A stretch of DNA of 63,099 nt, filler included, from Bonamia ostreae (lineage: Eukaryota): NCBI GenBank assembly GCA_040357525.1. It is 32 parts of 32 records of this genome, joined end to end, with 100 filler letters (N's around TTAATTAATTAA, not from the genome) between each part and the next. Parts side by side here need not be neighbours in the genome. Positions count along the whole stretch, not along the records: positions 1 to 1,894 come from JBDODL010001226.1; positions 1,995 to 3,888 come from JBDODL010001227.1; positions 3,989 to 5,880 come from JBDODL010001228.1; positions 5,981 to 7,872 come from JBDODL010001229.1; positions 7,973 to 9,861 come from JBDODL010001230.1; positions 9,962 to 11,849 come from JBDODL010001231.1; positions 11,950 to 13,836 come from JBDODL010001232.1; positions 13,937 to 15,821 come from JBDODL010001233.1; 24 more parts are not named here. One strand, 5' to 3'. This document shows positions 22 through 58,942 of this stretch, one piece after another. Every line of letters starts with the position of its first letter. The stretch's first letter is position 1. Under the pieces are notes generated by a model. That model was not told the origin of the DNA, did not search any database, and saw only the letters and a list, made by a program, of their open reading frames with translations. Made by a program: the position numbers and the translations under genes.

Positions 22-1660
22 AGGACTCGGCGTCAACCTGCACACCGCCGACACTGTAATAATTTACGACAGCGACTGGGTTTCACTCCCCAAAATTTAA
101 ACAAAGAACCCGCAAGCTGACTTGCAAGCGCAAGACAGAGCCCACCGCATCGGGCAAACGAAGACAGTGCGCGTCTTTGGACTCATCACCGAAGGCTCCA
201 TCGAGGAGCGTATCGCGCAGCGCGCCGAGAAGAAACTCTACCTCGACGCGGTGGTCGCGTCGAAGACCGGCGCGCGGAGGAAGAGCCGCAGGCCGCCCAC
301 TGAGAAGGACAAGGGCAAGCGCGAGCTCCTCGCGATGCTCACCTTCGGCGCGGAGCGCGTCTTCTCGACCGAAGGACGTAGCGTGAGCGACGAAGACGTC
401 GACTTGTTGCTGGGCATCCGCAAGAAGGACGCGCGCTCGCGATCTCGACTCGAGCCGAGCGCAGCCAACGCCGCAGAGTACGACGTGCGCGCGGGACCGC
501 TCGCGATCACGCAGTTCCGCGGCGAGAAAGTGGCTTCGCTGCGTTGTGCCGGGCAGAACCCGGTCGAGCGCATCGCGGTCGAATGGGCCGAGTTCAACAA
601 CCGTCTGCCTCCGCTCGACGCCGCGACGGCGGAGGACGGACGCGAACTCGAGTTCGTCGACGTGAAGTACAAGCGCTTCTACGGCCACGAGGCGACGTGC
701 CACGCCTGCAAGCAAGAAGGACTTCTCCTGCTCTGCGAGTGGTGCCCGCGCAGCTACCACCACGAGTGCCTCGGGTACGACGCGGTGCCCGAGGGCTCCT
801 TCAAGTGCCCGCAGCACAAGTGCGACGCCTGCTTCCGGTCGGCGCACGAGGCGGGTGGAATGCTGTTCCGATGCGTCAACTGCCCGCATTGCAGCTGCGA
901 GGACCACCTCAGCTTCGACATCGCGCCGGTCGACCGCTGCGAGGAGCTGGAGGCGTTCGGATACAAGCGCTCGTCCTCCGCCTTCTATGTGCTCTGCAGC
1001 AAACGCTGCGAGAAGGCGGCGACCGAGCGGAGGAAGCGGCGCGCGACCGAGGAGGAGAGCGCCTCCTCCGCAAAGGTTTCCTTCGCGTTAAAAAAGAAAT
1101 GGGAGTTTCTGCCGCAGTCGGTCAAAAACAGGATTCGAACGGCTTTGGAGAGCGACGAGGTTTGCTCCCTTTCCGAATTGCCGGGCTTTGTTACCAAACT
1201 GAAAGGTTTTGTCCCAAATTCCAGACATCGACCCGCAGTCGCCGCTGCTCCAGAGACTGCACGAAGTTCTTTACGACTGCGCTCCTTCGCAGATCTTCTA
1301 TCGCATCAACGGATGGCGTGGCGTTTCGGCGCGAAACGGCAAAAACGAGGGCAAAGACAGTGAAGATTTTGCCGGCGACAGCAAAACTGGAAAGAGAAGG
1401 ATCGGCGAAGAAGAGAAGGAAAAGGCCGCAGAGCTTTATAACAGAGCGACCGCGGAGTTTTCGTCGTGGAGACAACCGGTTTTGTTGCGTTTCTGCAAAA
1501 TGTTGGGAATTTGGACAAAGTCGGAGCCGAAGCGAATCTGCGGAGGCGCTTCTTCGGGGCGGGTGACGAACCCGAAGGACCGGTCGGTGAGCGCAGTGGA
1601 CAGCGAAGACGGGTTGGTGTGCCATCTGAGCATTTTCTTGGTCCGTCCGGCTGTGCACCG
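22..1660 (+). CDS. SNF2/ISWI-CHD-family chromatin remodeller, C-terminal part (helicase-C, PHD-type fingers, DEK-like region); partial
   Basis: [36 protein letters not shown] is restored by a 27-nt intron at 80-106; Cys/His fingers CHAC..CEWC..YHHEC..KCPQH; a 19-nt intron at 1206-1224 joins the 122 and 1209 ORFs. Confidence 0.88.
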
Positions 1661-1699
1661 TTTGTATGCGCGGCATAAATTTTTGGTTTTTATTTTAGT

Positions 1700-1894
1700 A
1701 ATTGCAATTTTTACAAATTTTGTTTTAATAATTGCAATTTTTTACAAATTTTGTTTTAATAATTGCAATTTTTGTACAATTTTGTTTTAATAATTGCAAT
1801 TTTTTACAAATTTTGTTTTAATAATTGCAATTTTTGTACAATTTTGTTTTAATAATTGCAATTTTTTACAAATTTTGTTTTAATAATTGCAATT
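1700..1894. repeat. ~31-bp tandem repeat (AATTGCAATTTTTTACAAATTTTGTTTTAAT), about 6 copies, running to the contig end
   Basis: Periodicity directly visible. Confidence 0.92.
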
Positions 1895-1994
1895 NNNNNN
1901 NNNNNNNNNNNNNNNNNNNNNNNNNNNNNNNNNNNNNNTTAATTAATTAANNNNNNNNNNNNNNNNNNNNNNNNNNNNNNNNNNNNNNNNNNNN
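1895..1994. other. Artificial contig-joining spacer N44-TTAATTAATTAA-N44 (first of 31; stops in all six frames)
   Basis: The same 100-nt spacer recurs about every 1.97 kb, and contig lengths fall from 1894 to 1860 nt. Confidence 0.98.
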
Positions 1995-2357
1995 ACGGAA
2001 AACATTTCAATTACTCGCGAGTCGGAATTTCGGTCAGAGGCGGCGGCAGTTACTATAGAAAGGTTTTACTCAAAAAATCGACAGATGGACGTCGACAAAT
2101 TTGACGAGTCCAGGCCATATCTACTTTCTATAGAAAACCCTTTGGACACTTGTTCTCCTTTTCACTTTTAGCTTTAGACATCGGAAAAAATTCCTTCGCG
2201 ATTATGCGAGTTCGGAAAGCTTTTGAGTACGCTTACAATCAGCTTTTAATGGCAAATGTTGTTTTTTGGTGATTTAAAGGACGAAGAAAAAAAGTTGTCG
2301 TTGCTAAGTCGCATCGTCGGGATCAGAGACCCGAAACTTGTTTTTAAGTTGAAATAA
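1995..2357 (+). CDS. TRF4: Trf4/5-like non-canonical poly(A) polymerase, C-terminal PAP-associated region (5' partial; not in ORF track)
   Basis: FNYSRVGISVRGGGSYYRK|..LLSIENPLDT|SLDIGKNSFAIMRVRKAFEYAY..SLLSRIVG; introns at 2063-2084, 2152-2171 and ~2258-2279. Confidence 0.8.
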
Positions 2358-2699
2358 AAGTTGAATCGAAAAATCAGAAAATAGCGACAAAAAGTAAATT
2401 TTTATCTCCATTTTTGATCATTATTTGAATTTTGCGTAAATCTGATTTGCCACGGTGACCATTTTTACACAAAAATAAACGATTTTTTGAACAAAAATAA
2501 TTTGAAAATAATTTTATCGAAAATAATTTACAGACTATTTTTATGAAAATAATTTGTTTTATCGAAAAACCATTTTGTTCAATATTAACGTAAACGAATG
2601 GTCGCGAAAATAAACGACAGAATAAATTATTGCGTATTGTTTAACGGTTTGGCCAATAAACGGAATATAGATATTTGATATAACCCCATTAATATTAAT

Positions 2700-56469: not shown

Positions 56470-56545
56470 CGGACGCGATAGTTAGAGCGCTCGCTTCGCA
56501 ACTTGAAGGTTCGATTTCCATGTTCGATCCCGAAGCAGTATAAAA
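56470..56545 (+). mobile_element. Degenerate host tRNA-derived SINE head
   Basis: GTTAGAGCGCTCGCTT..GTTCGATCCC, related to 59280-59367. Confidence 0.5.
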
Positions 56546-57318
56546 CCTTAGACGTGTAAAATCTAGCATTATAAGTGGAGATTACGGGTTTTTTTAATAT
56601 GACCATCAAAACGCAGACCCTGTGTCACGGTATTGCAAGGGCCGTATGTGTCATGCATAAATCAAAATCTGTGGCACATCACCTGAAGTTGGTTACACCC
56701 ATACATGAGTGAATATTTTTTGAATGGGACGCAAAGCAGCATATAATAGAATAAAGAATAATCTACTCATCGTTTGGTAACATTATTATGATAATATGAT
56801 AATAGCAATGAAAATAAGTTAAAGACATCTTCTAAATGGTTTCTATTACATAATAAGCTATCATTATGAAAAAAATATAACAACAAGGTAAAATGAATAC
56901 CTCTCTGATGAAGAAAACGTTTATTTGTACACAGCGGAAAAAAACCCACCAAACAAACAACTTTTACTACATTGATACCTCTCAGGATTAGCCATGCTGA
57001 ATAGCCTAAATATATATGTGTTCGTACCATTAGGCACACAAACATTGAGGGAAGGTAATTAAAGCTCATTTGCAGACTATATAGATGTCTATAAGAAAGC
57101 TTGGATATGGATAAAGACATTGCGATTTTAAGATTCGATTGATTAAGCTGGATGTATGTTTTGAGATAAGTATTTATATATTTTCTTAATCTATATGAAT
57201 TCCAAATAAATTACTATTNNNNNNNNNNNNNNNNNNNNNNNNNNNNNNNNNNNNNNNNNNNNTTAATTAATTAANNNNNNNNNNNNNNNNNNNNNNNNNN
57301 NNNNNNNNNNNNNNNNNN

Positions 57319-58576
57319 CGGTCATCAACGTGAATATGTATGGTTGGTGTCCAAAGATCGATTAATGACGATTTTGCAGAATAACCCAATGTGACAAGTT
57401 GAGTTATTGAAGAGGATAGCAAATTATCAAGGGAAAAAAGGATTTTTAGATTTAAAGGCAAATCTTGTTTTCCTTTCAAAATTGTTGGTTTTTCGGAAAA
57501 ATAGACTAGATTTAGACATTCGTCATTTTGCAGTTTAATCGGATAAGTTATCTTTTTAATGAAAATTTGCAACAATAAAGAACGTTATATTAACTCTTTT
57601 AATACTTTAATTATTGACCGTGACAACAATTAAAGGATCTTATTTTAGGACGATTGTGATAACAAATAAAATTACTTTTTGGTTTGGTACCAATCTTAAT
57701 TTTGGAGAATTATTTTCTTCTCCGGATGTTTTTTCTGCTAATAAGTCAACTTTGCTAATTACTACCGAATCTCTAATTGCTGTTTCGACCGCATTTTTAA
57801 CTATTATTCTAACAAAGACATTTTTCTTTTTATTTGTTATTCTAAACGATATCTTTTTTCCAAATTTTAGAAAATAAGGGACGGAAATCGAAAAATTGCG
57901 CTAAAAAACTTTAAATGGTTCTATAAGAGTCACAGATTTCGAAACCATTCTAACATCTTTTCTCTTGATTAAAGCTAGATGTTGTATTTTTTTTTGTTCA
58001 TCGGATAAAGAATAAACAGATTTTTCGCTGTAAGTTTTCTTGACATTTAGCAAACCCATTTCTTTCTGGTCAAAATGGTTTACATAAATTTCAATTGTGT
58101 TTTTGTCAGCTAATTCCTTTGAAGCTTTGTTTTGGTATCAGAGTTTTACCATTAATTTTTTGGTATGTCGTTTTAGAATTTTACCGGTTATAAAATTATT
58201 GTAAATTAAAATTGTTTAAAAACGCAGTTGAAGCTGTACAATAGCACAGAAAATTTTATTTTTGAAAATATTGTGCACTTTTAAATTTAAAAAAATAGTT
58301 TTGTCATTGATTCTGACAAGTCCAGACAAAACGAACTTTGTCCCTGTCGGCATTTTTTGGTACTTGAAAATGACAACAGCGAAGACCAGTTCGTCTTTTT
58401 ATAAAAACAAAGTTACTTTTGAAGACGTAATTTCTGAATTTGAGGTTGATAAGTCCTTTATTGTAAATTTTGACGATTTGGTTGTAATCGTAGCTGGAAT
58501 CCACTAAATAAATACCTTCATCGAGGGATATCGGAAAAGATTCATTTATGCTTTTTCCTCGTTGAATATCATACAT
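57319..58576 (-). CDS. Hypothetical multi-exon beta-rich protein (3' partial)
   Basis: ATG at 58576; a 22-nt GTAACT..AAAAG intron restores the frame; further ORF segments follow. Confidence 0.4.
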
Positions 58577-58690
58577 TGATGGCTAAACTACGAAGAATTT
58601 TTTATGTAGAATATTTAATCATTTATAACAACGAGCTTAAATTGTGAAAACATTTTAAGGTTTGTGGATATAATAAATTTAGTTTTGCAA

Positions 58691-58942
58691 ATGTCAGAGG
58701 AATATAACATAGGGCCGAACCTGGCACCGTGCTTTAAAGTGCCGAAAAATCAACAACCGATTTTCCTTTGCGCAAGTTTTGCAACAAGTGCTAAATTTTA
58801 AGACTGCAACGCAGAAAACAAAGTTAGAGAAAGAGATATGGTCGGTTGCAAAGTCTGCGGATACAAAATTTTATTCAAAAAGAGACAAATTAGACGTTTT
58901 TAATACAAAACTTAAAAAGCCGTGATGCACGAAGCAAAATGA
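58691..58942 (+). CDS. POLR2K: RNA polymerase I/II/III shared subunit RPB12/RPABC4 (not in ORF track)
   Basis: FLCA|NCNAENK..VGCKVCGYKILFKKRQIR|PVMHEAK*; introns 58776-58802 (27 nt) and 58896-58919 (24 nt). Confidence 0.9.

Follow-up and report, generated by a model that had tools for sequence, protein, structure and literature searches.

Genes and introns of the window

The DNA analysed here (the window) is 63,099 nucleotides (nt) from the genome assembly of Bonamia ostreae, a haplosporidian (Haplosporida, Ascetosporea, Rhizaria) that parasitizes flat oysters. Our subject is a set of putative introns in its protein-coding genes, most of them only 19-35 nt long, that share a U-rich 5' splice site (donor). 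The window joins 32 contigs of 1,860-1,894 nt, sorted by length and separated by spacers of the form N44-TTAATTAATTAA-N44, and does not represent one locus. According to the parts of Hiltunen Thoren et al. 2024 (PMC11069148) drawn on here, the assembly comprises 12.24 Mb in 9,705 scaffolds, with an N50 of 1,417 and a GC content of 33.3%. Exons of two window genes match proteins named Bonamia ostreae at 93-100%: a DEAD-box helicase exon on contig 9 matches two public proteins named ddx49 [Bonamia ostreae] (93% and 100%), and an exon on contig 16 matches the public protein 'Poly(A) polymerase [Bonamia ostreae]'. A dicyemid or myxozoan origin, to which the stand-alone DHFR, C2H2 fingers, and a 'mollusc metagenome' run had pointed, was set aside in view of these matches. 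Long open reading frames (ORFs) without in-frame stops exist in the window when it is read with the standard code, and nothing in them pointed to a ciliate-type genetic code; a ciliate origin was dismissed on this ground and because Nyctotherus-type introns are GTA..TAG.

We compiled a curated set of 31 GT..AG introns in 13 genes, using Pfam profile coordinates, hidden Markov models (HMMs) of homologues, the public annotation, and one spliced RNA-like contig. Ten of these introns were among 12 examples placed by hand in an earlier note on this DNA, which had proposed a divergent micro-intron system; the other 21 were not.

Placement of the introns

Alternative GT..AG pairs were enumerated and a unique answer was rare, and a naive scan for introns bridging ORFs proved too noisy for use. 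Four lines of evidence make no use of the intron's third base: a gene finder restricted to GT..AG, homologue HMMs, Pfam coordinates, and the public annotation. The finder, a dynamic-programming method, relies only on codon log-odds and the GT..AG rule. Of the 32 introns placed by it, 26 start with GTT, a triplet that accounts for 43% of all GT sites in the coding contigs; it also placed introns of 64-125 nt when longer introns were permitted.

For the HMM test, the protein was rebuilt with every frame-preserving boundary pair within 12-15 nt, whatever the dinucleotides, and each variant was scored against models of DDX49 (70 homologues, the organism's own proteins left out) and MO25 (57 homologues). 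At all 12 junctions the chosen placement was the top GT..AG option, and at 10 of them it also had the best-scoring intron length; the exceptions were 16616-16635 and 17351-17373, where a variant 6 nt longer and lacking GT..AG boundaries outscored it. The GT..AG placement lay within 0-1.6 bits of the top score at 10 of the 12 junctions, with deficits of 5 bits at 10342-10366 and 9 bits at 17351-17373, the latter in a poorly conserved tail. Across the 12 junctions set by HMM or public protein, where no dinucleotide rule was imposed, a GT..AG solution was always among the equivalent placements; GT..AG was demanded when the remaining 19 curated introns were chosen. Over eight further junctions the Pfam coordinates continue without a break or with a minor one, in which 1-4 profile positions are skipped or 2-3 are covered twice.

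The public annotation provides a further view of the same boundaries. It was made with funannotate, trained and updated with published transcript reads, according to the parts of PMC11069148 consulted. Four public proteins (P0001, P0002, P0121, and P0122) omit segments of 20, 24, 20, 112, 20, 23, 33, 308, and 25 nt, each of which has exactly one GT..AG solution.

These comparisons bear on the possibility that the introns reflect assembly errors or an artefact of hand placement, in which sliding boundaries were resolved by a reader's preference for GTT. Several junctions do permit alternative GT..AG pairs, and the examples of the earlier note over-sample AAG acceptors (8/10, versus 8/21 among the other introns). 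The third-base-blind HMM placement nevertheless yields GTT in 10 of 12 introns, 18 of the 21 introns outside the earlier list also begin with GTT, the GT..AG solution recurs at 12 of 12 tested junctions, and two DNA sequencing runs from different studies have identical sequence over contig 2. HMM placement, the introns not previously listed, and the DNA runs thus largely refute an artefact, which we regard as extremely improbable.

Intron-bearing genes

The two genes covered by HMMs hold the densest series of introns. In DDX49 (plus strand) these are 16023-16050 (28 nt, GTAATT..ATAG; HMM rank 2 of 122 variants, sole GT..AG option), 16210-16229 (20 nt, GTTCAA..AAAG; P0001; rank 1 of 179), 16381-16404 (24 nt, GTTTCG..GCAG; absent from P0001 'variant 4'; rank 2 of 193), 16616-16635 (20 nt, GTTCCG..TTAG; P0001 and P0002; within 1.4 bits of the top, best GT..AG option), 16946-17057 (112 nt, GTCTTA..TAAG; P0002; rank 1 of 201), 17196-17215 (20 nt, GTTTGC..AAAG; P0002; within 0.5 bits of the top), and 17351-17373 (23 nt, GTTTTT..GAAG; P0002; rank 43 of 193, best GT..AG option).

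In MO25 (minus strand) they are 11310-11344 (35 nt, GTTTTA..ACAG; rank 4 of 315, better of two GT..AG options), 11108-11135 (28 nt, GTTTTT..CTAG; 242.8 versus a top score of 243.7, and 8.8 bits above a 34-nt option), 10973-10994 (22 nt, GTTTTT..TTAG; within 0.2 bits of the top among 270 variants, sole GT..AG option), 10496-10803 (308 nt, GTTTTT..ATAG; P0122; profile continuous at positions 190/191, sole GT..AG option), and 10342-10366 (25 nt, GTTTTA..TTAG; P0122; rank 3 of 183).

Pfam coordinates place introns in several other genes. An eRF3/HBS1-like GTPase gene (minus strand) contains 4596-4618 (23 nt, GTTTTC..AAAG), with GTP_EFTU positions 2-23 in exon 1 and 25-115 in exon 2, and 4191-4273 (83 nt, GTTTTA..TTAG), where the profile runs to about 115 upstream and covers 113-159 from the first downstream residue. 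The CRIPT gene contains 5488-5506 (minus strand, 19 nt, GTTTTT..TAAG), and Cript profile positions 44-89 of 90 come into frame only after these 19 nt are removed. At 8479-8501 in the dihydrofolate reductase (DHFR) gene (plus strand, 23 nt, GTTGTT..AAAG), DHFR_1 positions 2-106 are followed by 111-159; a donor at 8482, giving a 20-nt intron, is equally possible and both donors start with GTT. The polyprenyl synthase intron 51942-52005 (minus strand, 64 nt, GTTTTT..ATAG) separates polyprenyl_synt positions 4-49 at the exon end from 50-194 beginning at residue 1 of the next exon.

A MAP-kinase-like gene (plus strand) is similarly divided by 24338-24359 (22 nt, GTTTTC..AAAG; Pkinase 1-70 then 74-138), by 24553-24649 (97 nt, GTTTTT..CTAG; Pkinase stops at 138, the exon end, and the DFG motif opens the next exon), and by 24718-24800 (83 nt, GTTTTT..AAAG; Pkinase 158-191 from residue 2 of the next exon). 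Retention of its intron 24912-24932 (21 nt, GTAACT..AAAG) would bring a stop at the donor, and the frame is open once the intron is removed.

Both introns of a superfamily-2 (POLQ/HEL308-like) helicase gene (minus strand) were also found by the finder. At 7100-7119 (20 nt, GTTGCA..TTAG) DEAD positions 12-146 begin at downstream residue 2, and at 6637-6667 (31 nt, GTTTTG..AAAG), where a 37-nt alternative is also possible, retention would give a stop 12 nt past the donor. In the gene for RNA polymerase subunit Rpb12 (plus strand), Zn_ribbon_RPAB4 positions 6-32 start at residue 1 of the exon after 58776-58802 (27 nt, GTTTTG..TAAG). The intron 58896-58919 (24 nt, GTTTTT..AAAG) is supported by the frame, which continues into a short C-terminal tail to the stop, and by a putative family motif.

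The SNF2-family helicase gene on the GC-rich contig 1 (plus strand) contains 80-106 (27 nt, GTTTCA..AAAG). Here Helicase_C positions 76-94 stop at the upstream exon end, the SNF2 motif resumes downstream, retention would give a stop 18 nt in, and the finder chose the same boundaries. A probable second intron, 1206-1224 (19 nt, GTTTTG..CCAG), was placed by frame shift and codon score only, and the exon downstream of it matches no Pfam family. In an unnamed gene with no family match, a probable first intron at 2757-2776 (plus strand, 20 nt, GTTTTT..TAAG) was likewise placed by codon score and by the frame, which is open from the ATG at 2701 once the segment is removed.

The 3' part of a Trf4/PAPD-like gene on contig 2 (plus strand) contains 2063-2084 (22 nt, GTTTTA..ACAG), for which the upstream exon holds PAP_assoc positions 14-31 and an RNA-like contig (record 19 of run X4, see below) carries the exact joint. 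Two likely introns follow. At 2152-2171 (20 nt, GTTCTC..TTAG) the unspliced frame stops 17 nt past the donor, and the sequence beyond presumably corresponds to a Trf4/PAPD family motif, for which tool searches found no match. At 2258-2279 (22 nt, GTTGTT..AAAG) retention would give a stop 12 nt past the donor, and the spliced frame is open to its stop. The 5' part of a Trf4/PAPD-like gene on contig 16 (minus strand) contains 30131-30163 (33 nt, GTTTCG..TTAG; P0121, sole GT..AG solution) and 29949-29971 (23 nt, GTTGGC..AAAG), which parts PF22600 positions 43-102 from 104-138. P0121 ends at a stop inside 29949-29971, an intron that the public annotation overlooked.

The two contigs look like two halves of one Trf4/PAPD-like gene: 29769-30532 (minus strand) of contig 16 encodes the PF22600 palm domain and runs off the contig, and 1995-2354 (plus strand) of contig 2 encodes PAP_assoc from the contig edge. 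A homologue search with the Trf4-like exon returned the organism's own protein only, and PDB searches with 22- and 28-residue exons returned no match.

Ten of the 12 examples in the earlier note are thus supported where it had put them, by profiles, by the RNA-like joint, or, for 2152-2171 and 58896-58919, only by frames and putative family motifs; for 1206-1224 and 2757-2776 the evidence stays at open frames and codon score.

A U-rich donor shared by short and long introns

Short and long introns have the same 5' splice site, G-U-U-U-U at +1 to +5, and the 3' site is an AG with an A or U directly ahead of it (-3). GTT begins 28 of the 31 curated introns (43% of all GT sites; p=5.5e-8) and GTTT begins 21 (20% background; p=7.5e-9). 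Seventeen start with GTTTT, two with GTA, one with GTC, and none with GTAAG or GTGAG. The earlier statement that about nine in ten donors are GTT, mostly GTTT, with few GTA or GTC and no GTAAG or GTGAG, therefore holds in the curated set. By position, T occupies +3 in 28/31 introns and +4 in 22/31, and at +5 there are 22 T, 6 C, 2 G, and 1 A. Measured against the composition of intron interiors (39% T), the relative entropy is 0.87, 0.42, and 0.54 bits at +3, +4, and +5 and approximately 0 at +6, confirming at +3 to +5 the proposed departure from the GTRAG consensus. U12-type introns carry ATCCTT after the first two bases, and this extended donor was found in none of the 31 curated donors.

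A canonical splicing machinery could in principle underlie such donors if the U run after GU had arisen through mutation or under weak selection, as a by-product of AT-rich introns eroded by deletions, and were tolerated since tiny introns would be defined mainly by their ends and length. Intron interiors are indeed 73% A+T, the base at acceptor position -3 follows composition (p=0.17), no branch motif is prominent, and myxobolid and dicyemid micro-introns have a 5' site reduced to 'GTa' (PMC13644364). The T enrichment is, however, position-specific (90% at +3 versus 39% in interiors) and ends at +6, and A, which makes up 34% of intron bases, stands at +3 in only 2 of 31 introns. The signal is also common to the long introns, five of six of which start with GTTTT, and the donor code is thus independent of small size. 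We consider the by-product explanation possible, if doubtful.

Length, acceptor, and reading frame

The introns are 19-35 nt long in 25 of 31 cases, the other six measuring 64, 83, 83, 97, 112, and 308 nt, so that the 19-28 nt range given in the earlier note is too narrow. The bulk (25/31) nonetheless lies under about 35 nt, as is typical of micro-intron systems.

Acceptors are AAG in 16, TAG in 12, CAG in 3, and GAG in none of the 31 introns. AAG is frequent, as had been claimed, but no more so than composition predicts, since 41.5% of all NAG sites of these contigs are AAG (p=0.17); it is thus tolerated rather than preferred. Two further features noted earlier are borne out: a pyrimidine tract is absent (pyrimidine fraction 0.50 at -14 to -3) and the 3' part of the intron is A-rich (47% A at -10 to -3 versus 22% at +3 to +8; Fisher p=2e-6).

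Intron length is a multiple of three in 6/31 cases and five of these six introns contain an in-frame stop, so that their unspliced messages would usually be truncated. In this small sample, stop-free introns with lengths divisible by three are avoided, as in other micro-intron systems. The exception, 16381-16404, has 24 nt and no in-frame stop; it is missing from the 'variant 4' protein and the 'variant 2' protein begins inside it. It may be an alternatively retained micro-intron.

RNA and DNA reads over contig 2

Read placement covered contig 2. There, the two DNA runs from different studies give even cover of about 9x and keep all candidate introns. A further run, X4, is labelled 'RNA?', its RNA nature being a guess, and its depth is very uneven (6.7-4,293). 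Record 19 of the X4 contigs (127 letters) ends in 8 loose letters which, together with a shared AG, equal the last 10 bases of the upstream exon and thus mark a precise joint across 2063-2084. One micro-intron is thus seen removed in this RNA-like contig and one, 2152-2171, is seen retained. Large parts of contig 2 lack X4 cover and nothing from X6, a definite RNA run, was placed on this contig; neither is counted as evidence.

Another X4 contig follows the reference over 3650-3684 (plus strand) and departs from it after 3684, just ahead of a GTTTTT, continuing with 28 letters found nowhere in the window. These letters could be a splice to an exon past the contig end or part of a diverged copy.

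Comparison with other micro-intron systems

Tiny introns are already known from ciliates, nucleomorphs, mikrocytids, dicyemids, and myxobolids. The mikrocytids Mikrocytos mackini and Paramikrocytos canceri belong to the same class as Bonamia, Ascetosporea, and also have extremely short spliceosomal introns (PMC10245619, in the parts used here). Incomplete splicing is described there (63% and 37%), to which the single Bonamia intron seen retained may be compared. The mikrocytid introns are, however, all 16-17 nt long, highly conserved in sequence, and few (224), whereas those of Bonamia run from 19 to 35 nt with a tail to 308 nt, have a shortest length of 19 nt, and vary in sequence past +5. 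This comparison concerns lengths and general conservation.

Ciliate introns fall into the same length class, at 21-29 nt in Nyctotherus ovalis and 20-33 nt in Paramecium, and in-frame stops are likewise common in those with lengths divisible by three, according to the portions of PMC2633312 cited here. Their boundaries are GTA...TAG as opposed to GTT...(A/T)AG in Bonamia, and the lineages are unrelated. Introns of myxobolid Myxozoa and Dicyema have medians of 22-27 nt and resemble those of Bonamia in their weak 3' signal, with a few A's before AG, and in having no pyrimidine tract, but their 5' site is reduced to 'GTa' whereas that of Bonamia, GTTTT, is stronger and different (PMC13644364). 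The Bigelowiella natans nucleomorph, a reduced Rhizaria-associated genome, has GT..AG introns of 18-21 nt (cited in PMC10245619, as far as the parts used here go). It is of green-algal origin with a narrow length range, and the likeness to Bonamia is one of short length and GT..AG boundaries.

Recognition of the GUUUU donor

Taken together, these data make it very probable that the segments are genuine GT..AG spliceosomal introns of Bonamia ostreae, mostly 19-35 nt long with a tail to about 300 nt, that obey one U-rich donor code. Introns this short would have to be recognised as whole units. A canonical U1 5' end and U6 ACAGA box would be expected to find little complementarity in GUUUU: of the positions of GUUUUU, the U1 5' end as known, ACUUACCU, would pair only with +1, +2, and +6. 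The part of the spliceosome that reads the 5' splice site has therefore most likely co-evolved with the donor. The mechanism could take three forms, namely a changed U1 5' end, a U1 of little weight, or weak pairing tolerated because both ends of the intron are defined together.

The first of these has a precedent in Entamoeba, an amoebozoan whose introns are tens of nucleotides long rather than about 20. Its donors are GUUUGU, with the U1 pairing site changed to ACAAAC, and GUUUGN makes up 97-98% of them, according to the portions of Roy and Bowser (bioRxiv 10.1101/2022.06.08.495308) cited here. Both organisms are parasites with AT-rich genomes and have U at +3 and +4 in about nine in ten introns (T 28/31 at +3 and 22/31 at +4 in Bonamia), and an A-rich U1 5' end is the mechanism that the earlier note proposed for Bonamia. 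They differ at +5, where Entamoeba has G and Bonamia has U (22/31; G in 2/31). Entamoeba belongs to Amoebozoa and Bonamia to Rhizaria. By analogy, Bonamia might possess a co-evolved U1 5' end with A's opposite +3 to +5, a tentative proposal to which we give a little less than an even chance; the changed U1/U6 recognition suggested in the earlier note is plausible on the same grounds.

Several observations weigh against this picture. The curated set is small and was in part seeded by the earlier list of examples. The finder set several acceptors wrongly and broke the 308-nt intron into false micro-exons, because of its 45-nt intron cap. RNA evidence is thin: the sole joint, at 2063-2084, has only 8-10 bases on one side and comes from a run of guessed RNA nature; the X4 contig that carries it, the only RNA-like contig to cover 2152-2171, runs unspliced through that intron; and a low-depth X4 contig reads through two introns of contig 2 that the finder predicted and that are not in the curated set. 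TAA, TTAA-like, and YTNAY motifs show no excess over shuffled interiors (YTNAY in 7 of 25 short introns versus a shuffle mean of 7.7, in a small and AT-rich sample), so that the proposed TAA/TTAA signal before the acceptor is not borne out and motif counts lend no support to a branch point abutting the AG. A search of the window recovered no U1, U2, or U6 at Rfam gathering scores or at E<=1, and no small nuclear RNA (snRNA) or splicing-factor gene was seen in it, leaving the co-evolution step without direct support here. Finally, U rather than G at +5 means that the Entamoeba solution is not simply transferable.

A more drastic alternative is a reduced spliceosome in which 5' sites would be chosen without U1 and defined by U5/U6 and intron length, as has been suggested for mikrocytids. 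Only U2, U4, and U6 snRNAs and 17-19 spliceosomal proteins were identified in Mikrocytos and Paramikrocytos, whose introns are 16-17 nt (PMC10245619, in the parts used here), and GUUUU would pair with canonical U1 at three of six intron positions, judging from the 5' end of U1 as it is known. Hiltunen Thoren et al. (PMC11069148), in the parts consulted, place the enriched loss of splicing genes at the ancestor of Paramyxida and Mikrocytida, however, and describe Bonamia introns as canonical. Bonamia also retains introns of 64-308 nt, in contrast to the fixed length of mikrocytid introns. We thus view splicing without U1 of this kind as quite unlikely.

These possibilities could be joined in an evolutionary sequence. 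Haplosporidians might use a GUUUU donor code that is deciphered by a co-evolved U1 with an A-rich 5' end, or without any U1, and the ancestor of the Ascetosporea may already have had this code. The mikrocytids, with their fixed 16-17 nt introns and stripped-down spliceosome, would descend from that condition, and Bonamia, in which one donor code serves micro-introns as well as introns of 100-300 nt, would represent a surviving intermediate. We offer this scenario as speculative and more probably wrong than right.

Relevance to spliceosome evolution and annotation

The Bonamia introns themselves are already in the public annotation, and a brief remark in a 2026 paper (PMC13746701, in the part used here) describes the introns of Ascetosporea as 'drastically reduced' in number and size. 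In the literature searched, whose supplements may hold intron statistics, we came upon no mention of a preference for GTT donors in Bonamia or in any other haplosporidian. Nothing shows the co-evolution of introns and spliceosome more directly than splice signals transformed together with the matching snRNAs, and only a few lineages are known to have them. Bonamia would be a further, independent example, one in which an atypical donor occurs in introns of near-minimal length. Because it adjoins the mikrocytids, the order in which the spliceosome was reduced could be worked out inside a single class.

The introns also matter for annotation. Gene finders overlook or misplace them, as shown by P0121, which a missed intron shortens, and by our own finder, which mis-set several. 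Such errors make for poorer proteomes in phylogenomics and in work on a listed oyster pathogen.

Other features of the window

An Rfam scan of the window gave no match at gathering scores and only two chance matches at E<=1; a transfer RNA scan of the window found none, and a metagenome scan found no relatives. About ten contigs (8, 10, 17, 18, 21, 23, 25, 29, 31, and 32) have no convincing gene and may represent abundant non-coding DNA of the parasite or leftover host DNA. Contig 20 carries an unbroken 453-residue ORF with an Otopetrin domain (37662-39020, plus strand; E=4.6e-17). The Otopetrin family is mainly animal, and this contig may on that account derive from the oyster instead of Bonamia. 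Contig 19 contains a non-LTR retroelement (35896-37559, minus strand; GC content 23%) with two long ORFs and an endonuclease-reverse transcriptase domain (E=1.4e-17). C2H2 fingers are also present in the window.

The DHFR gene of contig 5 (8086-8651, plus strand) has a stop directly after the end of the DHFR_1 profile (159/159), with no thymidylate synthase (TS) attached. DHFR and TS are fused in most non-opisthokont protists, and a stand-alone DHFR in a rhizarian is worth attention.

GC content is strongly heterogeneous, at 55% in the SNF2 contig (1-1894), 56% in a clathrin heavy-chain contig (25819-27694), and 23-43% in most others. The clathrin heavy-chain contig holds a 593-residue ORF without an intron. 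Both introns of the SNF2 gene are of the AT-rich GTTT type despite the GC-rich contig, and the 3' flank of this gene is an AT-rich 31-nt tandem repeat.

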